Assembly: GCA_015680685.1 (NCBI GenBank)
Contig: MNCI01001041.1
Span: 122,528 to 186,527 of the forward strand
DNA length: 64,000 nt
Direction of reading: 5' to 3'
DNA from: Gnetum montanum
Lineage: Eukaryota; Plantae; Gnetophyta
The notes beneath the pieces were generated by a model. The model did no database searches and was not told where the DNA came from. It worked only from the letters and a program-made list of their open reading frames with translations. Made by a program: the position numbers and the translations under genes. This document shows positions 13,000-64,000 of the stretch, piece by piece. How positions within the stretch are numbered: position 1 is the stretch's first letter; every line of letters begins with the position of its first letter.

Positions 13000-14900
13000 A
13001 CGGTAACCACCTAGGTGCTTGTCATCTTGCTAATTTGGGACTTAGAGCATACACCTTAGATTCTTGTAGATGTGACATAATAGAGAAACATCCCTTGGAA
13101 TATTCATGGTAACAAATGTTACATTCATCATCATATATTTTAGAATCTACAATCTCTTTTACTATTATAGTTTTATCCTTTCTCTGATGATAATCCTTCT
13201 TTGTATCCTTCATTTTCCTTCTTTCTTGATCACTACTCCCTTATTTTATTTTTCCCTCTGCAATTTTCAAAGTTGCTTGGAACTTCTCATCTAAGGAGTC
13301 ATACATTTTACCAACCTTGGTTGATATCTCTCTAAAAAAGTTTTGTATTAGAAAGGTCTTCTTTTGCATCACTTCATCAAGTGGTGTCTCCCCCTCTAAG
13401 TCATAGAGATGCACCTCCCATTTGTAAATGGAGGGATCCTTATTATACTGCTCTATACTTTCATGCTTTTTCGGCACATCTATTTCTTTAGCCACTTGTT
13501 CAATCAACCTTTGAATATGATGAATCTGCATCTCAGAAATTTGTACTTGGGCATATACCCTAAGGGTTTTCCTAGTCCTATTTCTAAGCCTATCTACAAT
13601 ATGGAGAAGTTGTTCCCTTTGGGAGTATCCATGGCCTAGGCATTGATGCAATAGAAAGTAGTACCTACCCAAGGCTACATCCAAGGACTCATGATTTCCC
13701 TACTTCCATCCTTGGATTTGACTCTGCAAGTTAGACTCTTTAGAGTACGTTTGATACTTTTCATTCAAGAGTTCCAACATAGTACTTCATTAGTGACTGG
13801 ATTTTGGTTTCAAGGATCATTACTAGCTTTCTACTACCTTGGTGAGTGTCCTTGGGAATAATTTGAGCTTCTGCCATACATTTTCTATATTTTGTAAGGC
13901 ACATGCATCATAAAATACTTGGAGTTGATTTTGAGTAACTAAATTATATCCACTTCAATTGGGATATTGTTCATATCCAACATTTTAATTCTACTATCTT
14001 TTTAATGCCTTGTTAGAATTCTCACTACTTTTGAAATGTTAAGCATATTTTTCATCATAGTCATGATGATCACAGTAGTCCCTTTCATGGTCATGATGCC
14101 TATGATAAATGCTACTATGCCTTCATTCACTGTGACGTTCTTCTCTCTCTTATGATTATCTTTTCCCTTGATCTTCATCCTCCTTGTGGGATCTATGTTC
14201 ATCTCAATCCCATTATTCATCTCTATCTCAGTCTTAGCTATTCCTCCATTAATCTTGGCTCATGTTCCTCCTATTAGAGTTTGATGATGAAGATGAAGAG
14301 GATGATGAGAGTGAGGAAGAAGAACTAGGGGAATGATGCCTTCTAGTTCCTATCCTTTACTCCCTACTCTGATCCTTATGCTTTTATTTATCTTTCTTTT
14401 GATCATTATCCTTGTCCTTAGATGATTGGCTAGGATTTTTTTACTTTGAGGCCTTGTGGTCATGAGACCCTATCTTTCCATCACCAAGGTTTTCCAAAGT
14501 TTACTGTTACCTTTATTTAAGGATGTCCTCATCGTAGAAAGGAGGAGAATTCATGTATTGGGATTAGCTAGAAAGAAAATCCTTGTCCTCTTCCTGCTAT
14601 TAGAAGAATAAATGTGTTAGGTTCATCTTGCCCTTAGAAGCATCATATCATGCTTCCATGTACTGATCATTTTTTTTTTTGCTAGGCATTAGTGGGCTAA
14701 TAGTCCCCATAGGTGTAGTCATGGACTTCATATTTCGAATTAAGTGTAGTGATGCCTAGCCTAATGAGATTGGCCATCAACATGATGGAAATTGATCAAT
14801 TTGATGATAACACATTGTTGCCTTTCATGTTCCTCTAGTGCATTTTTTCATCTTGATGAAGGATGAAAGTGAAACTCAAATTATAAGGATCTTGATGAGA
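13000..14900 (-). pseudogene. A2 gag with low-complexity N-terminal extension
   Basis: ORF 13241..13684 (RYYFLLHQCLGHG) is homologous to A3 gag (RYYTLLHRCPGHG), an Athila-type CPxHG motif. Confidence 0.85.
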
Positions 14901-15095
14901 TTAAACAGCCCTCAATTGTTGGGGCTTCTTTGATGTCCCTTGTTATTGATTGGGTTCTATTGTATGTGGTGGAGATTCTTCCCTATGAGAAGATGTCATA
15001 TTAGTATTAAATTCTCAATATGCCTTAATATTTTTAACAACGTCTTTATATGAATCATAGTTTAATCCTAATTAGTACACTTAGCCAAACTAGAG

Positions 15096-15113
15096 TCCCT
15101 GGTAATGGCACTA
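15096..15113 (-). promoter_or_regulatory. PBS of A2 (tRNA-Asp type, decayed)
   Basis: Minus strand TAGTGCCATTACCAGGGA adjacent to the LTR terminus at 15115. Confidence 0.7.
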
Positions 15114-15432
15114 ATGATGAGCAGTGTGTATGTCCTACGCCCAACCATATGAATCATAAGCTTGCACTAGCAATTTGGTTGAATTTCATGGATCCAGTTC
15201 CTAAGTTTCCTATAGTCTTAAGTAGTAAAACAAGGGGTTGTATGATCATTTTCTTTTGAACTCACACTTGTGCTATCAGTTAATATGGTTAAATGTGAGT
15301 TAAGGCACATGATGCATATTTTTTATAAGTATATATATAGATATATATATATATATATATCCTAATGGCTATATAAGTAAATGAAGGTTTCATGATTAAT
15401 TAGTTAACTACTTAGCTAATCTAGTGACTAAC

Positions 15433-17178: not shown

Positions 17179-17245
17179 TGATGAGTGGTGAGGTACCCCT
17201 ACACTCAACTATATGAAACGAGCGTAGCACGCACGATCTGATCAA
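17179..17245 (-). repeat. Terminal fragment of a family A LTR
   Basis: TGATGAGTGGTGAGGTACCCCTACACTCAAC... matches the reverse complement of 44350-44414. Confidence 0.8.
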
Positions 17246-17976
17246 AAAACCCAAACGATGTCAACGTCAACATGTCAGAAGATCCAGATTTCCTAGATTT
17301 ACTAGAAGAAAGTGGCAAAAATCCTTCAAGCCAAGTCTTAAAAGGTTCTTTGTTAAATGCCAAAAATGATCGTTTTCCAGAAAGAAGGTCACTTTTTATT
17401 CTTGTAGAAATCAAGGTCATTATGCTCATGAATGTCCTAAAAGAAAAGGTGATCAACGAATCAAGGCATTCTTCAAACATTATTTAGAAGACTGGGAACT
17501 AGTGCAAGAGCTAGAAGCTGAAGCATCCACTGAAAAGATATATGCTATTCAATTGCTCTCTGATTTCGAACTAAGTGAAGCGTTTGAAGCAAGTAGTGTT
17601 GACACAGTCAATGAAATTTCAAGTGAAAATGAAGGTGAAAATCCAAGAAGTAATATGATGCAACCAGCACAACTAGAAGATGAATGGTTTACAAACATCA
17701 CATTGGATGATTTAGCAGAAGTTCAGACGTGGTTAAATGAAGAAGAAAAGTGGTCAACCTCAGACTATGAAGACTCACAGTGGAAAACTAAAGCTACATT
17801 TTTTGATCAAGATTCTAGCATTTCCTCTACCTTGGGATTTAAAGAAATACTCCCTCGAGCTAATTTTGAGAACAACTCAGATGAAGAGATTCCAACTAAG
17901 GTAACACAGAAGGTGCCCAAATTCTTAATCACTCCATATGAAAAGAGATTTCCAGTTGCCACCGAATTAACACAAG

Positions 17977-19799: not shown

Positions 19800-22312
19800 A
19801 AAGAAAAATGGAAAAAGTATCAAGCTTTCATTGATATGGATGCCACATTAAATTTTTGTCATAAGGATGTCTTAGAAACATGGGTTATGCACAAGCTAGT
19901 CACTTTGAACACTATGAATGGAGTAAGGAAGCTCACTCATTTTTCTTTCAATGTGCCAATTTCTTTGAATGATGAATATGTTGGAACTACAAATTTTGTT
20001 CAGATTTCAGACAGTTGTTTTGATATTGGATTAGGTGCACATTTTATGGATAGTTTGGGTCCTTATATAGTAGGTCAAGAGATGATTGTGTGTACATCAC
20101 CCAAATAAGATGCAAGGCCAAAGATCATCCTGAGCAAAATTTCAGCACAGCTTCAATGCAACAAACATGAGCAAATCAGATAAGTATTCAATAGGGATAA
20201 TCCTTCTCTCAAACAAGTTCTTACACAGTATGAGCTCAAAGATCTTGCCAAACAGAAATATGCTCGTATTTAGCAATTGAAGAAAGCACAGATAGATGTG
20301 AATGATGAAGACAATAGATTGATTGGTCAGTGTTTGGAAGCATTGCAGAAGTGTTTTTGCAAACATCCATTAGATTTTTGGGATAGAAATAGTCCAAAGG
20401 CACACATTCCCACAGTTCATAATATTCCAGTGTAATCCAAGCTGATAGTCCTCAATCAACAAGATGCAATAGAAATGACAAAGAAAGTTTCAGAATTCTT
20501 AGCAAAAGGATTGATTCAACCATCACAATCCAATTATGCATGTGCCAATTTCATTGCTCGAAATCATGCAGAAGTTAAAAGAGGCAAAGTGCGCATGTTC
20601 ATCAATTATATTCCTTTGAATGCCATGACTATAGAAGTTAAATGGCTGCTCCCAAATAAAGAAACTTTAATCCAAAAAGTTGCAGCAAAGAAAGTGTTTA
20701 GCAAATTTAATTACAAATTTGGATATCATTAGATTAAGATTCAAGAAGAAGACATTCACAAAATAGCATTCAGCACACCACAAGGATTATTTGAATGGAA
20801 TTTTATGCCATTTGGTTTAAAGAATGCACCAGCTCAATTTTTTTTAAAAATGGATTCAATCTTTGGAAAACATCAAGAGTTTGTGGCAAATTATATTGAC
20901 GATTTTTTGATTTTTTTCTTAAACTTCCAAGGAACATGCCAACCATCTTTCAATCTTTGACGAATTATGTGCCAAGCATGGAATAGGTCTTTCAACAGAT
21001 CCAAAGAAGTTTCAAGTCGGATGCAGAGAAATTGAATTCCTAGGCATAACCATAAAAAATGGTAAGATCTTTATGTAGCCACATGTTCTTCAAAAATTTG
21101 AGCAATTTCTATATCAACTGGAAAACAAGGATCAATGCCTCATATTTCTTGGCTATGTAAATTATGTGTCCAAACACATAGAAAATTTTTTTGATAAAAC
21201 CACATAAATCAACAAGTGTAATAATCAAACACCTTTTCAATAGATAGCAGCAGCAACAAAACAAATGCAGCAGCTCAAAATTGAATGCAAGAATCTGCCA
21301 CCTTTAAGTCCAATTCTTCAAGGACCATTTATACTCAACATCGATGCCATCTATGATGCATGGGCAGCTGTTCTTCTACGCACTAGCAATACTCGAGAAT
21401 CTGTGCTTATGCTTCAGGCATCTTTCACAAAAATGAATTGAACTACTGGCCTATAGAAAAGGAAATTTTGGCAGCAATAAGAGGTTTCGAGAAGTTTCAT
21501 ATTCATTTAATTTCTAAGATTTTCATTTTGAGAACAGATTCATCCAATCTAGCAACCCTTCTCAAACAAAGAATCAAGCCTTCACCAAAGTTGCAGTGAT
21601 TCGCTTGGTGGCAATTTCTCTTGGTGCAATATCAGTTTTTAATTGAACGTATTCCAAGTTAAGTCAACAGCCTCCCAGATGCTTTAACTAGGGAACTGAA
21701 GCCTAAGATACTAATGTTGCAGCCAGAATCTAGTAGCAGTTCGCAAAATCCCTTACAAGATGCAAAAGAATGGAAAGCATGGCCTCTCCACAGCCTAGAA
21801 GATCATGTAAAATGGTGTCACCAAATTACAATCATGTTTCCATAGGAGTCCTCCATGAGCATCACGAAGCAGTATCCAATGCTAGGTTTCTTCATCAACA
21901 TAGCAGGAAGAATCGATTGCTTCATCAACAATCTAAGATGGAGTCCCTTAGAAGCAAAGCTTTTGCAACATCTAGGATTATTGGAAGTAATGGACAATTT
22001 GCTCTTAACCAGACATCCTCTTGTTGCTAATGAAATGCTCACAGATACTTCACAGAGTTACTTTAGTCACATGCTTGGGAAGACAAGTTGTGCTCATCCT
22101 TCCAGCGGATCAATCTGTACCAAGAGTTGACGTGGTACAAAAATGAAAGGATAATGTCAAAGGTGGTTCAGCAATATGAGCCAGAAGATGTGTCTTCCAC
22201 TCCAGCTGGCATCCTCACAGAACTATCCAAACTAATCAAAGAATGTTATAATTGTATAAAGGCACGTGGTAAGATTTGTGTGGTTCACCGAGCCATCCTG
22301 AAAGCTATCTAG
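19800..22312 (+). pseudogene. EVE-1 AP-RT-RH plus in-frame C-terminal extension of unknown function
   Basis: ORFs 19836..20108, 20475..20732, 21855..22130 and 22088..22312; multiple stops and frameshifts. Confidence 0.8.
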
Positions 22313-22981: not shown

Positions 22982-25948
22982 CCAGTTATCTAAAAATCAA
23001 CAAGAAATTGGTGAGTCTTCTAATGTAGCAGTCTATAGTTGTGATGATTGTGGGCATGTGTGGCCAGAATGGTGTTTTAATTGTGATGATTATTGGGAAA
23101 ATCCTAAGTGGAAAGCTGAGAGATGGTAGGTAGATAATCTTTTCCTTTTAGCAAAAACTTTGTTTGAATATAAAGAGAAAATGAATACTATTTAGGAACA
23201 CTATATTGGGAAAAAATAGCCAAACCTATTGAAGAAAGACTTGGTGTTATGTCTGAATATTACTAGTCAATGGAAAAGTGTCATATGTCTACTCCGAATG
23301 TTATGACTAAAGAAATTAATGTGAAATATGAGTTAAAGTGAGTAGCCTCGTGTCCTCAATTGTGCCAAACTGAATTATATGGTCCTCTAGCTTCTTCAAA
23401 GTCCTATCTCGTAATTTTCGAGATTGAAGAAATTTTTGATGATGAACTACCTGATGCTTTTGATCATCCCATGATTCCTGATCTTAATGAGTTTCCTCTA
23501 GAATTAGGAAAACCTCCTCAAGTGTTATCTCATAATAAGTATGGAGATCAGTATGTTTACCCTCTAATGCCTATTGGTGATTTGTATGATGATGAAAGCC
23601 CTAGTCCATTTAAAGAAGAAGATCGACGCCTTCTTCAGGAAGTAGCTAAAGGAAAGAAGCGTGTTTATGATGAGCATGTTGCAGTGGTTTATGATGAAGC
23701 TACAGAAGCACAGGTACAAGAAGAAGAAGATAGAAATTTTTGTTTACAAGTTTTTAATATGTTAGTTCAAACTGCAATAGAAGATGAAGATGCCTTTTTA
23801 GTGGACAATAATGATAGTCATATAGATGATGATGAGCTCTTTGGGCCAAATCCTTTGCAACAAAATCCTAGAATTTTAATGCTACGGTCTAGCAGTGTTA
23901 GTCTGGAAAATGATGAAAAAGGAAAAGCAGTAGTGCAAGGTGAAATGTCGACTAATCAGCAAGCTATTTTCAGTTCTCTGAAGAATTATTTAAAAAGAAA
24001 TATATATCTTTGGATATATGTATATTACAATCACTTTGAAGTTCGAACACCCCCTCCATTTTTATATTCTTTTACTTTTGCTTATTTTTATTTTATAATC
24101 AACATTAATAACCCTTATTTCTCTTAAGCTAGATAGGCTATAAGGATGGTGGTGGCCCTAGTACTTTATTAATTTTCAAATTTATATCTACTAAGTTACC
24201 AAATAACTACACTTTACACTTCAAACAAATCATACTTATTCTGCCCATATTAATGAACATTGAAATAATACATGAACATAAATCTAAACAATCTCAAACT
24301 TTATTACTAATTATGAATTGTGTCAAGAACAATCCGCTCAAGTAAAGAGGCTATACAACTATAATTCACCACACTATGAACATTCACAACTAAGTTAAAG
24401 AAAACAAACTATAAAAATTTCATTAAGGGTTAGCAAAAAAACATCTCCCTTGACACAACATTGGATTTGTATTTATAGGCATGACCATGGGCCACTACAT
24501 CATGTATTGAACAATATCATAGATACGATATTGTAATTGTTGACATGAAATGTTTTATCAATAAGGATCATCACCCAAAAGCTCAATGCTCATCTCACCA
24601 AGGCAAAGTCCTAAGAAGGCAATGGATAAACAAACACCTAACCTCGTTAAATTGGCTACACTCAAGCTTAAACATAGATCTTATAACCAAGTTGACCATA
24701 AAAATAATAACATCAATAACTTTTCATAGGATCATCACCCAAAGCCTCAATGCTCATTTGACTAGAGAAGGTCCTAGAAAAGTCAATTGATATACAAAAG
24801 CTAAATTTTTAAAGTAAATATTATAATTAGAACAAAAAACCTAGCTCATCCTTCACTAACTATGTAACTCATGACAATGCAACCATCCCACATCCTTCAT
24901 AAAGCACTTACCTTAATTATGTATAAATTGAAATGATCCAAATGGAATATTTTACTTAGGTATATTTTCTTTTTTCTTCTTACCCACTATATTAGCATAA
25001 AGCTTTTGGAACATAGTAAATAAAAGCACTCTTCTACAATATTTCTCTTCAATTTTGTATTTTATATGCAATGTTACTTGCATTTCTTCATTGAATAAGC
25101 TCAACATATTATGGTGCTCAAATCCAATAAATTTTAAATGAGCTCATCTTCATACAATAATATGAAATCTCATCTTAAGCTAGGTCATCAATTAAGAATT
25201 TATTCCTACACATTATCAACATCTTTACATTGAACCATGGCATAAAGTAAACATCATTTTTTATTTAATTTCCTATACTTTTCTTCTTGATTTTCTACAT
25301 CATCATCTTAATTCCCTCATATTGATTTGATTTCATTCAAAAACCTAAGAATTTATTTATCAGATATTACTCTTAGAATAATTTTCTCAATTCCTTCTAC
25401 CTAATTTTTGTTGTGAAACTAAAATTTTATTTCATTAAAAAACCCCTTTAAATACAAGATGTTTTTATAAAAATACAAAATTGATAACTGTTTAGATCCA
25501 AGTAAAGATATTAAAATTCATAATCCAATACTAGTCCATCTAATTTCACTGATTCCACCTAGCTTCTTAGCTAGTCATCCGTTTGGCAAGGACACCTACC
25601 AATACAAGGAAGTTCACATAACTCTCAACCAAACAATAGGGAAAACTACAAATAACAAGTTTGAGTGTCCCACTATCACCTATGATAGCTAACACCCCAC
25701 ATGGAAATCAATGTTTTAACACCTCCAACTACTACCCCACATGAAGAGTGCAAAACCATATAATAAAACACATTTTAATGACAAATGCAAGAAGTTTCAA
25801 CCCATATGTGGCAAAGGATGCTTACGCAAATGCACAAGTTAAAATCACACGCACACACAAATTCACAATGCTAGTGTCTACATAATAACACCATGGGAGG
25901 ACACTAGCTTAAAGGTGTTAAACACCCTCCTGAAACACCACTAATTTC

Positions 25949-28842
25949 ATGACCTCAATGTTGCCACTATAAAAGATGATTTCCCATTACCTAGCATTGA
26001 TCAACTTATTGAAACAACTGATGGGCATGCGCTATTGTCCTTCATGGATGGATTTTCAGGATACAATCAAATAAGAATCAATCTAGAACATCAACTTAGA
26101 ACAACTTTCATGACACCTTGGGGCACATTCTGTTATACGATGATGCCATTTGGTCTTAAAAATGCAGGTGCCACATATCAGCAAGCAATGACATACATAT
26201 TTAGTGATTACATGTTCAATTTGCTCAATGATTATGTTGATGATAGCAGTCAAATCTAAAACAACTGAACAACATGTAAAAAATCTACACATAGTGCTTA
26301 AACATTGTCTCAAATATGACCTTAGGCTCAACCCAAAAAAGTGTGTCTTTGATGTTAAAACAGGAAAAATGCTTGGTTTCCTAGTTTCCGAAACACAGAT
26401 ACGAGTAGACCCTGATAAGGTTAAAGCAATAACCAATATGCAACCACCAAGAAACCTTACCGAACTATGGGGCCTCCAAGGTAGACTGCAATTCATCAGA
26501 CACTTTATTGAAAGGTTGACGGATAAGTTGAGTCCTATACAACATCTATTACGAAAGAATGTCCATTTCCAATGGACTCAACAATGCCAAGAAGCGTTCG
26601 AGAACATAAAACAAGAGTTGGCTCAACTACCAACTGTTTATTCTCCGCAAAGTGAGAAACCTTTCTACATCTATCTTGCAACTTCTGGTTCCTCCATTGC
26701 ATCCATGCTTTGTCAAAAACGTCAAGATGGAGCCAAGATCCCTATATATTATCTAAGCCATTCATTAATCGCTTATGAACAATGATACAACGACGTAGAA
26801 AAATTATGCCTCACCCTCGTCTTCTCCTTGAGGAAATGGTGGCATTAATTCTTCTGTAATCAAGTTTACATCATTTGCAAGGATAATGTTCTCTGTGCCA
26901 TCACTAATAACATCTATGAGTCAAATAGGTTAGCTAGGTGGAAAGCGATGATCGTAGAGTTTGACTTGCACTATGTCGCTTAATCTTCCACAAAAGGTCA
27001 AGCAATAGTCCCGCAACTAACCGTCTCACCAACGTACAATCAAATGACAATAAACCCCGAATTCCTAGATGAGAATGTTAATAGTATAGACACCATACCT
27101 GATAACTATAAGGCAATCCTCTACTTCGATGGAGCCTCAACCTCTTGAGGAGGAAGCGCTACGGCCATTTTGACATATCCATCTAGAGAAATCCAACCCT
27201 TCGCCTACCACTTAACCTTTCCTTGCACCAATAACATGACAAAATACGAAGGTCTTCTTAGAGGCCTTCAAGCAGTGCTAACTTTAGGAATCTCACGCCT
27301 TGTAGTTCGAGGAGATTCGCAATTAGTCATTAATCAGGTCATTGAGGTTTACTCATGCAAGGCTCTCCATTTACAACTGTATTGTGATTTGACCAAACAT
27401 TTGGTAAGGAAACTAGTAGAAGTGAATATACAACACATCCCTAGAAGCAAAAACATCATTGCTGATGCACTTGCTACACTAGCCTTAAACATAACACCCA
27501 AAATGTTCCATGCATTGCCAAGCTCTATAACAAGTTGCACTAAACCTATAATTAATACTGTGATGAAATACCTGTAGCATCTGTTGGTACAACACATGCA
27601 ATAGAATGGTACGATGACATAAAAGAGTATCTTCTAAGAGGCAAACCTCCACAATATTTGACAAATGCTCAAAAAGACACCGTACGGAAATGTTCCTGCA
27701 AATATGCATTAATAGGAGACACCTTGTGTCATAAATCGTATGAAGGAATTCTGCTAATAGGCGTTAGTAGCATTGACGGTTAAACGATTATAGAACAAAT
27801 CCACGAAGGACTTTTTAGAGGACACATAGCACCTAAAGCAATGGCAACAAAGATTAGACGCTTAGGTTACTACTGGCCACACATGGAGTACGATTGCATC
27901 TCCAAGGTAAGAATGTGTGACATTTGCCAAAATCATGGTAATCTAATACATGTGCCACCTAGCGAACTACATATAGCACAAATCACATGGCCATTCCAAA
28001 AATGGGATTTAGACTTAATTTGACCAATAACACCATCATCTTTAGCAGGATAGCTTTATTATCACTGCAACTGAATATTTCACAAAGTGGGTAGAAGCTT
28101 TTTCCCTTAGTAAGGCCACCTCAAAACACACTTGCACTTTCATAATAGAAAATATCATGACTCATTTTGGAATTCCAATGACCATCGTTACCGACAATGG
28201 GCCACAGTTCAGTAGTGTAGATACTAAAAGCTTCTATGAAAGTCTGGGTATTAAACATGCATTTTCATCACCTTACTACCCACAGAGCAATGGTCAAGTG
28301 GAGGCTACAAACAAAATTGTCATCATGGTGCTCAAAAAAATGCTAAATCAAAGTAAGAAACAATGGCATGAATAATTGGTCTATGCATTGTGGGCATATC
28401 GAACAACACATCAAACATCCACAGGTAAAACTCCATATAGTCTTGTATATGGACCTGAAGCTATTTTACCTTTAGAATTGCACGTTCCCTATTGCGGATT
28501 GCTCTCTCCAGCCTCCTTGATGAACATCAAAACAATGAATTGCGCATTGTTGACCTCGATTCGGTAGAAGAGGAACATGTACAAATGCTTGATCAAATTG
28601 AATGCTACCAAAAATAGCAGAGGCAAAGGCACATACACGATCTCCATAAACGCCTGATCAAAGAAGGAGATCTAGTCCTTAAGACCACCCGTGAACATCT
28701 AGATAAATTTTCAACCAATTGGGAAGGGCCTTACTTAGTCATCAAGGCATACAATAATGGAGCATTCAAACTTGCTGACATGGAAGGAAATGAGTTCGCT
28801 AATCCTACAAACCACTTGTACTTGAAATGGTACTATGTTTGA
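25949..28842 (+). pseudogene. Family B pol: RT, RNase H, additional (archaeal-type) RNase H, integrase
   Basis: SFMDGFSGYNQI...YVDD; aRH LYFDGAS...CTNN..KYEGL...GDSQLVINQ...ADALA (ORF 27170..27577); INT GYYWPHM...CDICQ, TDNGPQF, YYPQSNGQVEA, WEGPY. Confidence 0.92.
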
Positions 28843-32078: not shown

Positions 32079-35000
32079 CCTCCCAAAGATGTTAAAATGT
32101 CATTTTTATGCTTGGAAAGTAGTTCAACCTTTGCTTTCCTCTCATGCATATGTTTTACTTGAAGATTTAAGTCATTGTAGCAATTGCTAAAAATCTAACA
32201 ATTTGTTGTACCTGTAACCTTTCTTTGGATGGATATTTTCTCTATATGAACCTTGCCTAGTAAGTTAAAAGAAATGATAACCAAATAAAACCTATCAACT
32301 AAATCATAAAGGTCCAAAAGAAATGTAAGATATGAAAAAATATAATCCAAATCTTTCAAATGTTGACAAGGATTAATAGGATCTTTAACCAAAGAGCCAA
32401 AATTTTCTTCAAACCCAATCCTATGAAATGTTAAATAATAATCTACCATTAATAGCAAGTTATAATTTTCAAGGAGAGAGATCATTAAACAAAACAGCAA
32501 AAGATATTTAGACAATGAACCTTGATCACTATTTTATTATTACGTACTTGACATTAATACATGAAAACCTTCCAAGCCCCAATCACCAGTTCAATCAATC
32601 CCCTAGAATCCATTTGCAGTTTTTAAAGACATGCATTACTATCTACTAATCAACATTAATAAAATGAATGTAAAATCAATTTAAAAATCTACATAGAATA
32701 ATAAACTAGCTAAAAGGATATCTCCCAAAAGCTCAATGCTCATCCAAAAAAGGATGAGGATGCATAGGAAGTTGATGTTCAAATTCGAATGTTCATCCAC
32801 AAAAGGATGCATGGGAAACTGATGTTCAAACCTGTTTTAAGAAATATGCACCTTCCCATCACTCTTATCTATCACTTCAAAAATCACGAATAAGAAATTA
32901 TGTATAAGTTTTAAAATCTTAGTAATGCCTCTCCCATCACTCCTGGAATAATAAATTGTGTATTGAGCTTAAAAACCTTGGCAATCAAAAAAGTGTCTTT
33001 AATAATTAGTTTATTTTTCCCATCAAGATATCATGTATAAAATAAATAATTTATAATAGCTCTACCGCTCAGCTGCATTCACTACTGAACAATGCAGATC
33101 AAAATATTACTAGCGCCAACAAATGCAATAATTCCTATAAATTTTTTTTTGATTTCTTAAAATTAAGTAAAACAAAATAACCACTTTCAAATGATTCCAA
33201 AGTAGCTAATGTCAACGATTATCCTTATTTTCACTTAATTATTTGCTACTTTAGAGAGGAATTTGTATTACCGACAATTTTTCAACCACAAAGACATATA
33301 CACCTAGCATGGTGAATTCAAAATTACCATACTGTAGTAGCCAAACATTCCATTCTTGACTTGTTACTGCTTTACATCAAAACCATTATGGCTGGTAACA
33401 AACTAGAAATGTGTCCTCTAAAAGTATAAACTCATTCAAATCCAATTCTAAATGAAACATTAGTTCAACTGCAAATTTGTTAAAACAATATTAGACAAAA
33501 TCAGCTATTTTTTATAGAAAATACAAGTAATGGATATTCCCTGTAACTTTTTTCAAGTCCTCATATCTACTTTAATCGTGTATCCAAAGCATCTGTTGCA
33601 CTGGAAATGACAAGCAGGTGAGCTTAAGTCACCCTAGTAACTTCTTTCATTTTCTTTCATGCTCCCACATAGATCCATATATACACACTTCAATTTAACC
33701 ATTTCCCCTTCTATAAACACAAGACAAATTTATGTTTGCCATGCTTTGTAATTATGTACACCTTGCAAGTACATAATGCCATATATATAGACCTATATCA
33801 GTCTTTTTGCTCTTTGCAGCATCTTATTCTATTCATGGTCCAAACTACACAAAGAGATGGCTACCATAGCAAGTGATGAAGTGAATGGGGTACTTGTTCA
33901 TAAAATAAATAATTTATCCACAATTTCACATCAACATTCAACTATCAGTCTATAACATTGTTATTAATAACATTATTTTGTCCAAACTTTATTTATTGAA
34001 TGGTATCAAAATGGAATGCAAGAGGATAACAGCAACAGAAAGCTATACCAAACCAGAAGGGACAACAAAATAAACACCAAAGGATGTTCTCTCTTCAATG
34101 GAAAATCAATGGATTTTCCACAAAGCTATAATCTATACACATCCTATATCAGATATTTCAGATTTGCATTCAACCCACAAAACCATTAGACCTTTAGAGA
34201 TTGTTATAGTTGACTTATCATTGATAACACTCAGTTTGTTGCATCAATCATCGAAGAATACTTGTGATGAAGATCAAACACATGGCTAAGGAACATGAAA
34301 TGCAAAAGCAAAGGAAACTGTCAATAGGGGTTTCTAAAAAGAAATGTTGATAAAAGAAAACTCTCTCCTTTTCGAACTCCGAATGCTAAAACCAAAAAAT
34401 TTCATTTCAGTAGGGCTATTTGACTGCAGCTGTATTATGACATATATTATGCTTTCTTAAAGCCCTGTCCTACGCATTCTAAAAGAAAATATCAAATAAA
34501 TCTTCAAGTCCCCAAATTCCTCTTTTATGATCCTGTAGATCCACAAAAAAGAAAAAAAAGGAAATTATTTCAACCACAAAAACCTAGCTTTCCAACCAAA
34601 GAACCCTCTTCTTCATCATCCAATGAAGTTCAACAATTACAACAACAAATAATTGCTTTACAACAATAATTAAAACAAGTCATGTTGAAACAACCTAGAG
34701 ATGATGAGCAAATATCACAAGCTTCTTCTTCTACCACTATAGAACAAGGTGATCCTTCTTATAGACATAAAGTTCTTGAACAAATATATAGCCATTATCA
34801 CTGCACAGAATGTGATGCCCTTATCAAAAACGTTCATTTACACATGAATGTTAAAGAAGAAGATGATGAGTCTGAACAAGAGAAAGAATATAAACAAAGG
34901 TTAAAAAAGATCAAAGAGGAACATCCTAAAAAATATGAATTATTACAACAAAAAATTACAAATGATAATGCTTCTGAATCTATATGGCGTTTACAAGTTA

Positions 35001-38000
35001 AAAAGTCTTTATCTTGTCCTACAGATACAGTCTGTCTTTTAAATTGGACCAATACCACCATAGGAGATGTTATGTATCTTAATCGTGCGCAATTACAAAT
35101 TTTAGAAGAAATGAACAAAGTAGTATTGTCTCAAACAATGGCTATAAGGAGTATTAATCAGGATGTACAAACTATTAGACAAGTATTGGTTCCTAAATCA
35201 CCTAGAACATTTGTTGTCACACCTAGTGCTCCACCATTACCAACGTCACCTGAACAAGTATTCTTCCTGACTTCACCACCTGAAATGAAACAATTAAGAC
35301 ATGAGTGGAAGAAACAACAATAAGAAAAACAAAAGAAAAAAGGAAAAGGTTTATTTATCTTTGCTAACACTACACATAGTGAAAGCTCTACTTCTTCAGA
35401 ATTAGATTCAGAAGAAGAACGAGAAATGATAAGAAATACAACTGGTGAAACAATACAACAAGGAGAAGCAGCTACTTTAATGCAAGAACGAAAAGCAGGA
35501 GATAAACAACCATCGTTTACAATGGATAACAAAACCTTGAAAGAACGACAAAATGTAATAGATGCAATACAATCATATTTAGATGTGCAAATCCAATTAG
35601 AACAAAAACCAACAGCATGAGCTATATTAAATGCATCATATAATTTTCAAGGTATTTTATGAAAGTGGTGGAATCATATCCCAACACATGTCAAACAAAG
35701 GATTGTTAGACAACCTACTGCAATATTTTTAGGAGCCATATTAAAAGAATTTATTGGACAAAAAGGTAATGTTGAAGAAATCTACCATGATAGCTATTTC
35801 AAAACCTGTCTTACAAAAATACAAGATCTACCTGTATTTCTTGATGAGATGGAACATTGGTATTATTACAGTAAGCTAACACATGAGGTAGCAGCAAAAG
35901 AACATTTGTTAGGATGTCTTCCGCAACCATTCTGCAACAAATATACACAAGAATTGAAAAAGCAAGGATTAATTCTAGCAAAAATGAGTTTCGGACAAAT
36001 CAGACAATTCTTAACATCTACAAATCGTGAATTATGCTACACACAACAAGCACAACACCTTGTCCAAGATCTTAGCCAAAAATTAGGTAAAAACTTATGT
36101 TTAGAGTTATGCCCAGAAGAAAAATATAATAAAAAACCCAAAAATAAATCTATATGTAATCGTTGTCAAAATCAACTTAGAAATAGAAATAAAAATTATA
36201 AACCTCAACCACAACAACAATGGCGAGGTAAGTTTCCTATGAAATTTAAACATTTCCCTGGCTATTTCTGTCGACTACAAAACAAGATCCTACGGAAAAA
36301 TGTAAAATGATTTATTTGTAATGGTCCTCATATTGCATCTACCTGTCCTGACAAATCTAAGGATTAACGCAAAATCCATTTTATCCAACGTCATAATATT
36401 TCGGAACAATATTATGAATTTCTTGACCAGAGTGATCAAGAATCTAATTTTAACCCTTCCAATGATATTTATTATGAGGATTCTAACCATTATAATGTTA
36501 ATGACCAACCCAGTCTCGCTTTTTCCGATGAGAGGGATGTACCTGCGGATCATTCTTCTTGGGATGACTTGCACCCTAGCGATGATGATACGGATCTCAT
36601 ATATTATTGTAGTATGAATCGTTTTAAAGCTTTGTCATCCATATCATCTAGAATATCTACACCACGAGCAACCGAATCATTCCTACAATAAGATAAATAT
36701 ATATTAGAACAATTAAAACAAGATATAAAAATCTTAAAACGAAAACTTTCTAATGTATCATTAGAAAACATAGACAAATATTTATTAGTAAAAAATCAGA
36801 TTAGTAAAAAGAAAGAAGTAATTAGAATATATAAGAATTATCTTAAAAACAAAGACTGGCAATTAAATGCTCAACCAGAACCTTTTGAAACAGAAGCCTT
36901 AGATGATTTAGAACAAATCTTAGAGGAACAATCCCAACACTCCCATACCTCTAAACAAACAGAAAACAAACAAGATGAAATTATTCATGTAGTCAATAGA
37001 TCGGTATGGAGAACGAAAAGAATAGAACAATTACAATAGTATATCCAATGGGCAAGCCAAGAGATTGAAAAATTACAATAAAAAGAACAAAGTGACCAAA
37101 GACAAGATTATGAACTAGAAACCAGACAAATGAAACCCATTAGGATAAACACTAATAAAAATTCTATTCTTCAAGTACCAATGTGCACCCTTTGAATTAA
37201 ATTACCAAGTTTTAAACCTTATCCCATAGATGTCTTAATTGACACAGGTGTCGAAGCAACATTGGCTCAAAGAGGGATTATTACACAATTTCTTTGTAAA
37301 CCAAGACCTAAATTAATTATTACTTTTGATAAAGTAGATCATCATGTTACAGAGGAAGCCCAGATACCCATTCAAACTACTTCAGGAGAAATCTTTTATT
37401 TAATTGTCTACTGTATAGAATGGTTAACATATGATATGATCGTAGGAGTTAATAATTTAAATCAGTTTCAAAAACTAGTAGTAACAAAAAACCATATTCT
37501 ATTAGGAAACCATCAATATAAAAAATTAGAACAGCCCACAATTAGATTTGATTATAAAAACCCTAAACCAGAAAATACCAGATGGATGATACATCAAATT
37601 CAAACTAAAACAAATGAATTAGAAGAAATAAAAAAGAAACTATTGACATTAGCCTTGGATGACCCCCACAATATTCTGTCACAAGAAAACTCACTGGTGT
37701 CATATTACTTTAATCGATAATATTTGATGACACGCGATATCACATGTGCCACGATATCACGTACGCAATATCGCAGCCGTCGCGATATCGCATCCCATGT
37801 GATATCGCGTACGCAATATCGCGTCGTCCCCTGCGATATCGCGTACGCGATATCGCAATCCGCTACCAAATCTATAAATAAGAGGCGGCACTCCCCTCAT
37901 TTCCTATCCTAGGCTTAAAGTAGGGAAACTCTAGCAGTTTGATCACTCCAGAGATAGAATATTTTCTATGTGCCCGCAGTAGGAGTCCCCAAGTAAATGG

Positions 38001-38543
38001 ATCTTTATTCAAGCAGCTTTGTACCTGAACGCAAGTTGTGTACGACAATAAAAACGAGATTTGTGGATAAACCTTATAATGCATGGAATAGGATTTATTA
38101 CTTGTTATTTATTACATGTTATTTATTACCTGCATTAGCGCAACATGAGTACGACTTGATTACGAGCATTGATGAATGTGTACGGCTAATCAAGGAATCG
38201 GCTACTCATTGCAATTAGTCTCTCTCACCCTCAACTCCTAGACTACAGAATGAGTACGACTTGATTACAAGCATCTACGGGTGTGTACGGCTAGTCAAGG
38301 AATCGGCTGCTCATTACGTTTAGGCTAGTTAAGTGCCTCAGTACGACGACTTCGAGCACGTGCGTTATGTGTGGTGATCCTAGTAACGATTAGCGTTTGG
38401 TAGCCACAGTTGCATAGTTCAAGGTGTGTACGGTAAGTGGGAACGGATGCTGACGCTAGTTAATTTAGACTTAGGTCCTTAGTTAGAGTTAGTTAGCTTT
38501 CTCAACCCTCCACCCTTTAGCATAGGAGAAAAACAAAAAAGCT

Positions 38544-38862
38544 NNNNNNNNNNNNNNNNNNNNNNNNNNNNNNNNNNNNNNNNNNNNNNNNNNNNNNNNN
38601 NNNNNNNNNNNNNNNNNNNNNNNNNNNNNNNNNNNNNNNNNNNNNNNNNNNNNNNNNNNNNNNNNNNNNNNNNNNNNNNNNNNNNNNNNNNNNNNNNNNN
38701 NNNNNNNNNNNNNNNNNNNNNNNNNNNNNNNNNNNNNNNNNNNNNNNNNNNNNNNNNNNNNNNNNNNNNNNNNNNNNNNNNNNNNNNNNNNNNNNNNNNN
38801 NNNNNNNNNNNNNNNNNNNNNNNNNNNNNNNNNNNNNNNNNNNNNNNNNNNNNNNNNNNNNN
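38544..38862. other. Assembly gap (319 N)
   Basis: Run of N; should contain the end of the A3 5' LTR and its PBS. Confidence 1.
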
Positions 38863-61273: not shown

Positions 61274-62274
61274 GTATTCATCAAGTCTAGCATGCCAACA
61301 TTAGATGGGGAAAAAGTGTTAACCTATGGATTTTTCCATGCATCAATAAAAGCTTCTTGACTCACACTAATACAACACTAATCGTTGGAGAATTCATTTA
61401 GATTTCATAACCTATAATTTTCAATCTAATTCTAAACTTTTGCTATTGCAGACGGTTTAAATGAATTTACAGGAATTCACCTAGAGGAAATCTGAAACTT
61501 GTCTCATCAAAATTTAAAACTAGAAGTTAAAAAAACGACCTAAAAATTACAAAGACAATTTTGGCTCTACTTATCCTAATTTTACCATCCTATCATTGAA
61601 ATGAATGGTATCTAATTCCCTTTTTCTACTTTTTCAAATTTCTATTGAGCTTGACAGAAATTACATTACGATTAAAAGGACATCTAAGCATTCAATGTAA
61701 ACAACGGCTAGAACATTATACTGCTGTGATGCAACTGCCTGATTATAAGCAGAAAGATAAAGAAAAAGAATTGAAAACCAAACAAATTAACCTTTTGCAA
61801 TGATTTCTTCATAGTGGAATGCAAAATGTTTCGCAGCTATCCTTCAAAACTGTATGGAAAGACGTTACCAGCTCCAACGCTGTAGACTTACAACAATTCT
61901 GCTTTGATTTCACAAAACTGCAAAGTTTCCACATAAATTACCAGGAAAGAATCACTTTCCTTTGAAACTACATCAGCTAAATTTCGAACAAAGTAACCAA
62001 CTCCCTTATCCTTACCTTAGATTGTTTCGGACATAAGCCTGGGAGCTCAGGTTGAACGTCCATACACATAAAAATCGATGCCAAACCCCAATCCGGGAGA
62101 AGAAATCGTCCCAGGCCAACTTAGAAAACAAAATTAACATCACCAATTCAAATCAAACTAAAAGCAGAACAAAAACACATAGCAGAACAAAAACACATAG
62201 CTCAAACAAGCTCGAAACAATAGGATCATTCACTAACATTTTCCTCCGCTGGTCAGTCGAAACCCTAACCCTGG

Positions 62275-62917: not shown

Positions 62918-63456
62918 TTGTGAGAATACTTTTTGAGAATATTCTAAAAAAAAAAAAAGCAAAAGTAGCCAACGCATTTGTGAGAACATTTTTTGGGCAA
63001 TAAAAATGCACTAGCAAGCATACATCAAATTGATGATAAGTTTTAAAGCTAAGTTAAAGGTAGGATTACGAGTATTTACCTTTGCAAGCATATTCATCAT
63101 TTAATTCTTAAAGTGTTTTCATTCTTAGTTGGAATGCTAAGAATAAACCTCAAGTAAAACATTTGTACTCAACTATATTATTGCTACATGGAAAATCAAA
63201 TTTATAAGTTTGATAGCTAGGATCCATACCTTGGTAATGAAGGATGCAAGTTGTGTTAGAATTGTGAGTTGTATGATCACCATTGAAGTACAGGTATGGA
63301 TTAAAATTCTAATGTAATATAGTTGCAATTAGAAAAGGGATTGGTTCCTTGTATATGATTCCTCAAAAGAAAGGTGGATTATTATAGTTGATGGTTTTGA
63401 TAGTGAGGATGAGATGAGAAGGTCTAATATGGCTTGGCCCTTGATAGACTATTGAG

Positions 63457-64000
63457 TGATGAGCGGCAAGGTACCCCTACGCTCAACCATACGAATACGA
63501 GCGTTTCATGCACGATTCGGTTGAATTCCAAGGACTAAGTGCTTATGCGCCCTTGTCGAACAAGGATGGGTTGATTGATCACTATCTTCCCAAACTTACA
63601 TGTATGTCACGATTGTATGGTTAAGTAAGCTTGAGGCATATGATTTTTATATCTTTTATGTTTCTATGTCTTGTACTAATAGGGAAAGAGAGAGATAACT
63701 AGGTGACTAATTAAACTTAACTACTCATTAACTAAGTTCTAACTAATCCTAACACAAGGTATGTTGTACACAAGGTGTGCTCAGGTACATAATGCTCGAA
63801 TAAAGATCCGTCCACACTTCGATCTTATGTTGCGGGCACTTGGAAACTATTCTAACTTTCAAATAGACTACAAGAGTTTTGGTACTTGACTGCTACCCGA
63901 CTTCTTCTTCTAGATTACTCCCTATTGTGCGCCTAGGCATTGTATTTATAGGCCTAGGAGCGACCCAAGAATAACCGCTCTAATAGTAACCACTCTAATA
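63457..64000 (-). mobile_element. Family A LTR (3' or solo), runs off the right edge
   Basis: TGATGAGCGGCAAGGTACCCCTAC start, similar to 52991; TATA ~63943-63950; no adjacent PBS. Confidence 0.85.

Follow-up and report, generated by a model that had tools for sequence, protein, structure and literature searches.

The window analysed here is a 64,000-nucleotide stretch of Gnetum montanum DNA (contig MNCI01001041.1), and all positions below refer to it. Self-comparison of the window reveals, between 34436 and 61290, a 26.86-kb span holding an inverted pair of near-unit-length caulimovirid genomes, which we call V1. The left arm lies on the plus strand and the right arm on the minus strand; each is ~6.6 kb long, and they meet at ~47700–47817. 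This bears out the tail-to-tail pair proposed in a preliminary description of the sequence. That description took the whole 26.8 kb for a viral palindrome, which is too large a claim. The inverted repeat consists of five blocks (34436–34720 with 61272–60988, 35127–35670 with 60995–60452, 35678–35777 with 53995–53895, 35766–37724 with 52990–51058, and 44413–47637 with 51064–47817). Their global alignment between the arms has 6,061 columns and 502 differences (91.7% identity, Kimura two-parameter distance 0.089). Later insertions account for about 14 kb of the span, leaving about 13 kb for the original V1 insertion.

The order of genes along the arms is that of a single viral genome, interrupted by younger elements. 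The first part of the left arm (34436–37724, plus strand) contains a decayed open reading frame (ORF) 1 from just past the movement protein (MP) domain, with a zinc-knuckle region and an aspartic protease (Peptidase_A3). It matches by tblastn residues 236–1321 of P0001, a polyprotein of 1,768 aa that is intact, belongs to the same lineage, and comes from a 6,010-base contig of a public sequencing assembly. Beyond a long terminal repeat (LTR) retrotransposon, the second part of the left arm (44415–47699, plus strand) carries reverse transcriptase (RT), RNase H (RH), ORF2, the intergenic region, and the MP domain, identified from Pfam, tblastn, and motif matches; its viral homology stops at ~47693. 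A 118-bp templated filler from the V1 RNase H region (47700–47817, minus strand), recognized by its identity to both arms, links the arms. The inner part of the right arm (47818–52990, minus strand) then gives, by self-comparison, motif, and tblastn, MP, primer site, ORF2, RNase H, RT, protease, and zinc knuckle. It is followed by a solo LTR, a short V1 piece (53903–53995, minus strand, 95% identical to 35678–35777), a second caulimovirid that we call V2, and the outer part of the right arm (60452–61290, minus strand). This last part is delimited by tblastn, contigs, and codon scores and has a 399-nt in-frame deletion at ~60990. The tRNA-Met primer site is an exact motif match in the left arm (46886–46897) and has one mismatch in the right arm (48557–48568).

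Mapped on P0001, the left arm runs from codon 235 round the circle to codon 194, and the right arm from ~229 round to 174. Both arms were opened at a nearly coincident site inside ORF1, downstream of the MP domain, as had been described. They are also near-complete, and they fall short of a full circle by about 120 nt (left) and 162 nt (right) in the P0001 frame, instead of the 165 and 225 nt first estimated; 102 nt are absent from both. Each arm has sequence that the other lacks: the right one has 18 nt more on the outside, and the left one has ~60 nt more on the inside, plus the 399 nt.

Fragments of V1 and V2 match the Pfam families MP, Peptidase_A3, RVT_1, and RT_RNaseH, and no integrase match was found in the 29 fragments scanned with Pfam. 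With MP, protease, RT, RNase H, and an intergenic tRNA-Met primer site, both have the features of endogenous Caulimoviridae. V1 is colinear with P0001 over its whole length and has an ORF2-like region after RNase H. As P0001 is intact, an uninterrupted relative may be extant or recently inserted. A tree of the RT-RH region (51 rows, all kept) puts V1 and V2 among the caulimovirids; in it, the V1 left arm, V2, and P0001 form a clade of their own (100/99). This clade sits in a group (95/88) with Taxus, Cryptomeria, and two further sequences, apart from the clade of petunia vein clearing virus. V1 and V2 also fall outside a 12-member clade (100/99) labelled florendovirus-like by its domain layout, in a tree that includes no named florendovirus reference. 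The RT-RH region of P0001 is at most 50% identical to those of 48 other aligned proteins. P0001 lacks the DUF7746, DUF7588, and Caulimovir_coat matches found in another protein, P0005, and all four ORF2 fragments are without a Pfam match, in a library copy that may predate the DUF8797 (PF31063) model for florendovirus ORF2. Because V1 and V2 resemble florendoviruses in layout but not in RT, we do not assign them to that group. They may belong to an unnamed lineage, and may fall in one of the 35 new operational taxonomic units (OTUs) of PMC13308828, membership of which goes by RT clustering at 62% identity.

Outer junctions and the empty site

Ten of the 14 public DNA runs listed cover part of 32500–36500, and five were compared as contigs. 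The left junction is bridged by a contig of run X1 (34284–34628) with no differences. The right junction is bridged in all four runs compared (X1, X5, X6, and X7, from three organisms), with 2–9 differences in 97–380 bases; hence, the insertion is older than the split of these organisms. The host flanks belong to a multi-copy segment, with a summed contig depth of about 25–130 versus 4–10 for single-copy contigs, and the left flank (33036–34435) is part of it. Paralog contigs of X1 and X8 depart from the window at 34435, continue with 10 letters absent from it, and then resume with the right-flank sequence from 61290; the same 10 letters precede 61290 in X6. The empty site is seen in these high-depth host paralogs and not in an orthologous allele. 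Since the paralog contigs join the left flank to the right one, the pair results from a single insertion event at one host site, in agreement with the preliminary description. The interval 60946–61325, with the right junction and the 399-nt deletion, has a contig depth two to three times that of the left-arm contigs in each run, which may reflect merged haplotypes or an extra copy of this end.

The string GTATT is indeed present at both ends of the span (34432–34436 and 61274–61278), and was first read as a 5-bp target-site duplication (TSD) around arms whose outer ends lay within 2 nt of each other. The right copy is viral. Gap-free alignments of contigs from other virus copies extend through 61278, 61284, and 61290, and the tblastn match of P0001 begins at 61287. 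Compared with P0001, the six in-frame codons past 61272 have a score of 11 and the left flank has one of −8; 0.2% of 34,164 flank 18-mers score as high as those codons. Homology to the host repeat starts at 61290. Contigs, protein match, and codon scores therefore all show viral sequence past 61273, the very observation that the preliminary description had named as damaging to its reading. They indicate that 61274–61290, right GTATT included, is viral coding sequence, so that the right arm runs on to about 61290 and the outer arm ends are 18 nt apart. The expected empty site, with GTATT as target, is not what the paralogs contain. They hold instead the 10 host letters that the window is missing, which means a small deletion: the host lost about 10 bp, with nothing duplicated. 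The resemblance to a TSD arises because the virus has a palindrome, ATACGTAT, at 61270–61277, and the host site reads GTATGA. This is a 6-nt microhomology with the virus, at which the window has three extra letters, and it is likely to have set the left join.

Insertion in the manner of an integrase or transposase, giving a 5-bp TSD around giant terminal inverted repeats, would account for GTATT on both sides. One suggestion for endogenous caulimovirids is that they hijack the integrase of a transposon (PMC10377300, section 3.1). The transposon analogy nevertheless fails with the TSD, given that the right GTATT belongs to an arm reaching 61290 and that the host lost bases. The V1 outer ends show no TG..CA framed by matching pentamers, unlike both nested LTR insertions, and there are no terminal inverted repeats between the two host flanks (best matches of 17–23 bp, E ≥ 0.05). 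We regard such an insertion as extremely improbable.

Arms in opposite orientation would also result from two insertions made separately at one spot, from a chromosomal inversion or duplication at a later time, or from a chimera of the assembly. Neighbouring almond Flo-1 elements in this arrangement have been interpreted as recurrent integration (PMC13658181). The window has a gap of 319 Ns inside the LTR element, the host segment is multi-copy, and contigs are deeper at the right junction than in the left arm. Against these, the two junctions map within 10 bp of each other on the host and within 18 nt on the virus, with opposite orientations. Divergence between the arms is a uniform 8%, whereas the two halves of an assembly fold-back would be near 100% identical; neither arm contains the other, and the depth ratio may reflect merged haplotypes. 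This group of explanations is thus very unlikely.

Origin of the two arms

Most differences between the arms are neutral decay that followed the insertion. In MP and RT-RH they number 43, 36, and 41 at the three codon positions, versus 190, 115, and 305 in the control comparison of V1 with V2. Replacements that can be polarised fall almost equally on both sides (57 right, 55 left), and 69 of these 112 are C>T or G>A. The arms have 15 and 17 stop codons, and divergence along them is uniform (33–63 per 500). Transitions follow methylation context: 64/185 (0.35) at CG, 78/274 (0.29) at CHG, and 238/1,654 (0.14) at CHH sites. Transitions within 34436–61290 are also skewed to one chromosome strand (228 versus 152, P = 1e-4), and the skew runs the way it should with the minus strand as the non-template one. 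As the polarised subset is not significantly skewed (40 versus 29, P = 0.23), we dropped the skew as a sign of read-through transcription.

Decay of this kind does not account for all differences. When per-class rates are calibrated on 126 replacement changes in the 846 codons where one arm retains the outgroup residue, 40.1 silent differences are expected and 58 are observed. At the other 3,443 sites, 245 are expected and 312 are observed (67/43 observed/expected in the intergenic region, 81/64 in ORF2, and 164/138 in variable ORF1 codons). The joint excess is 85 (95% interval 27–142; none of 300 bootstraps at or below zero), corresponding to 1.4% of sites, and is strongest in the intergenic region. 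It is unclustered (P = 0.89), which speaks against a patch derived from another copy. To this extent, and with moderate weight, the excess suggests two viral variants that had been under purifying selection before insertion. An excess at silent and noncoding sites favours two molecules, and keeps alive the earlier proposal of a defined linear form of the genome.

At the centre, the left arm extends ~60 nt further than the right one and is followed by the 118-bp antisense copy of the RNase H region, and then by the right arm. The filler is 94.1% identical to 45413–45530 in the left arm and 96.6% identical to 49928–50043 in the right one, and is thus nearer the right arm (3 events) than the left (7). 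As the P0001 residues show changes on both arms, we did not take the filler for a later copy.

This arrangement would be compatible with a single molecule. One broken V1 circle could have folded back its 3′ end and copied itself, priming first in the RNase H region for 118 nt, re-priming about 60 nt inside the end, and copying through to the other end, after which the hairpin was unrolled into the host break. Such a course needs no special site to account for outer ends that lie at most 18 nt apart and inner ends that lie at most about 60 nt apart. It places both templated pieces past the turn antisense to the left arm, agrees with the flat codon-position spectrum, and has a parallel in yeast, where fold-back priming at breaks yields inverted duplications (PMC10622511). 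It predicts arms that were identical at insertion, which is at odds with the evenly spread calibrated excess. It is also at odds with the 399-nt deletion of the right arm, which is in frame, as in a variant arising in the viral phase (1 in 3 by chance). Reverse transcription of the type found in cauliflower mosaic virus (CaMV) can produce hairpins, and that form of the fold-back is ruled out, as the molecule crosses the primer site intact. Copying from a single circle is possible, though unlikely.

In the account that we favour, and that is probable if only just, two variants with almost coincident breaks were joined tail-to-tail through end joining with templated filler, and were captured at one double-strand break. 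Two episomal V1 variants, about 1–2% apart, would each have been linearised near ORF1 codon 229. As a guess, the shared break would have come from joint breakage of two paired or recombining circles, which seems likelier than a fixed viral gap. The inner ends would then have been resected by about 100–160 nt and joined, with templated filler, by end joining of the polymerase theta type. Each side of a double-strand break in the host would have captured one of the outer ends. The left join, at GTATGA, would have trimmed 18 viral and about 10 host bases with a 3-nt slip; the right one would have used a 1-nt overlap. Methylation-type C-to-T decay of both arms and the insertion of the LTR element, the solo LTR, and V2 would have followed. 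End joining with filler, microhomology, and inverted arrays is known for transferred DNA (T-DNA; PMC8348815), and microhomology-mediated end joining of the synthesis-dependent kind (SD-MMEJ) explains templated insertions (PMC2943611). Two hypotheses currently stand for endogenous caulimovirids (PMC10377300, section 3.1), and capture by nonhomologous or microhomology-mediated end joining is one of them.

Several points weigh against this account. Two independent molecules sharing both ends at a noncanonical site are improbable in the absence of a cause (about 0.5%, by arithmetic on an 18-nt match in a 6.7-kb circle), a coincidence that copying from one circle explains better. The orientation of the filler suits that copying equally well, and the centre junction is taken from the assembly. 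The excess model assumes uniform post-insertion rates per mutation class and is calibrated on 126 events. In a first neutral simulation, the share of third positions was unexceptional (P = 0.13), with P = 0.0075 for the silent share there.

A common cause for the shared ends would be a fixed site-specific discontinuity just past the MP domain, such as a plus-strand gap, from which two linear molecules were joined and captured. It would explain why two variants share both ends, and breakpoints at a discontinuity are known for almond Flo-1 (PMC13658181, section 3.2); V2 probably opened in this way at the present locus (see below). In V1, the primer site is intact inside both arms. For the plus-strand gap put forward in the preliminary description, the homologous interval of V2, a stand-in for most of the 102 nt missing from both V1 arms, offers no purine tract (its longest run is 7–8). 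Just upstream, related contigs have loose ends that contain few purines on the viral sense strand. Several related copies read through the site in each of the four runs, whereas few Flo-1 fragments (8.2%) span their break site (PMC13658181). As the cause of the V1 ends, the discontinuity is distinctly unlikely; opening at a discontinuity seems to fit V2 better than V1. A wider version, in which an unclassified lineage has a fixed ORF1 break site with no recognisable polypurine tract and two co-infecting variants were fused and captured once to give the 13-kb inverted repeat, is unlikely as well.

Nested insertions and the neighbouring gene

The V1 pair later received three insertions, of which the two LTR ones differ from V1 in having clean 5-bp TSDs. 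The LTR retrotransposon (37725–44414) was recognized by its ends, its TSD (ATATT), and a Retrotrans_gag match. It is 6,690 bp long with ends TGATGA..TCATTA, and its 3′ LTR is internally deleted. Its LTR pieces differ at 13 of 211 sites, similar in depth to the decay of the arms. The solo LTR (52991–53902, minus strand) is 912 bp long, belongs to a related family, and is delimited by its ends and the TSD GTAAT. At the start of the LTR element (37732–37857) there is a cluster of short CG-rich imperfect palindromes of the GCGATATCGC type that matches its own opposite strand. More pieces of the LTR family of the two nested insertions lie at 63457–63885, 17179–17246, and 2331–2603. Other decayed retroelement copies, including RT-RH and integrase fragments, lie left of the locus (1–2023 with 13206–15206, 20472–21701, and 25945–28564).

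V2 (53996–60451, minus strand) is a second unit-length caulimovirid inside the V1 right arm, identified by its MP and RT-RH matches and a split primer motif. It is 6,456 bp long and about 65% identical to V1 at the nucleotide level in RT-RH, and its insertion cost V1 seven bases and left no TSD. A motif scan finds no intact tRNA-Met primer site inside it. The V2 3′ end can be aligned to the V1 intergenic region until it breaks off within a 7-mer that differs at one position from the start of the tRNA-Met motif, while the 5′ end starts with the second half of the motif; both halves sit at the position corresponding to the V1 primer site. Within 6,455 bases of V2, there are 12 occurrences of such a 7-mer and 6 of the second half, so that finding both at its exact ends is unlikely by chance. 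Hence, V2 was likely opened within its tRNA-Met primer site. The last three letters of the 7-mer are common to the V1 target, and V1 has TGGT and ATC at the two joins; microhomology at the primer site may have guided the insertion. The 474-aa ORF1 fragment of V2 has no homolog among 5,492 candidates of similar length, and its RT fragment has no relative among the viral contigs (0 of 14 candidate stretches).

The right host flank (61290–63010, minus strand; host contigs at depth 57–88 from 61296) contains a frameshifted SNRNP27-like coding region at ~62270–63010 (minus strand). Identified by translation, with a Pfam SNRNP27 match just below the cut-off (E = 1.7e-4), it lies ~1 kb from the insertion and points towards it. 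The host segment around it is multi-copy by contig depth (57–88 versus 4–10). If the lineage does have a fixed break site in ORF1, a 13-kb viral inverted repeat ~1 kb downstream of this SNRNP27-like gene could be read through into hairpin RNA.

Relation to known systems

Accounts of how caulimovirid DNA comes to enter the chromosomes of plants are described as speculative to this day (PMC10377300, section 3.1), and few empty sites have been resolved; here, the empty site and the junctions are both available, the latter at base level. They suggest that a break was repaired with the help of microhomology and filler, and they speak against an integrase. They indicate that a pair in opposite orientation can stem from one event and not from recurrent insertion, and they carry a caution, as microhomology at a viral palindrome can mimic a 5-bp TSD. 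With V2, a different lineage shows the opening at the primer site that was described for almond Flo-1. Endogenous caulimovirids in inverted and nested arrangements are already published (PMC13658181; PMC9868043; PMC10377300). Our literature search, in a library with few subscription journals, found no unit-length inverted dimer with a resolved empty site. We see the locus as a well-resolved fossil of one repair-mediated capture.

Copies in opposite orientation at one locus, as found here, are described for almond Flo-1 (PMC13658181), for the tomato inverted-repeat TSAs (PMC9868043; loci of endogenous pararetroviruses whose inverted repeat is transcribed into hairpin RNA and which yield 22-nt siRNAs), and for the rearrangements of endogenous banana streak virus (eBSV; PMC10377300). 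Those endogenous loci share with this one the nesting with transposons and other caulimovirids and the presence of unit-length copies opened at the tRNA primer site (here V2). Of the complete almond Flo-1 elements, 77% have their opening beside the Met-tRNA site (PMC13658181, section 3.2); V1, opened inside ORF1, belongs with the minority class (23% in Flo-1). Flo-1 reflects mainly recurrent integration (PMC13658181), whereas here near-unit-length arms share both ends and the empty site indicates one event. No TA repeats flank the V1 pair, unlike the endogenous caulimovirid loci compared. In genome organisation, V1 and V2 resemble Florendovirus, with its two ORFs and an ORF1 of the order MP, coat protein, protease, RT, and RNase H, and the endogenous Clade B OTUs (PMC13308828). 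Shared features are one long ORF1 (MP, zinc knuckle, protease, RT, RNase H), a short ORF2, and a Met-tRNA primer site. At about 6.7 kb for V1 and about 6.5 kb for V2, the genomes are shorter than the 7.2 kb of Flo-1.

Inverted T-DNA arrays offer a further parallel (PMC8348815; for SD-MMEJ, PMC2943611): two linear foreign DNAs in inverted orientation, filler, microhomology, and a small deletion of the target are found in both. Unlike T-DNA, the V1 substrate was circular viral DNA with no border-cutting enzyme, so that its shared ends need another cause, and the event was natural, in the germ line, and old.

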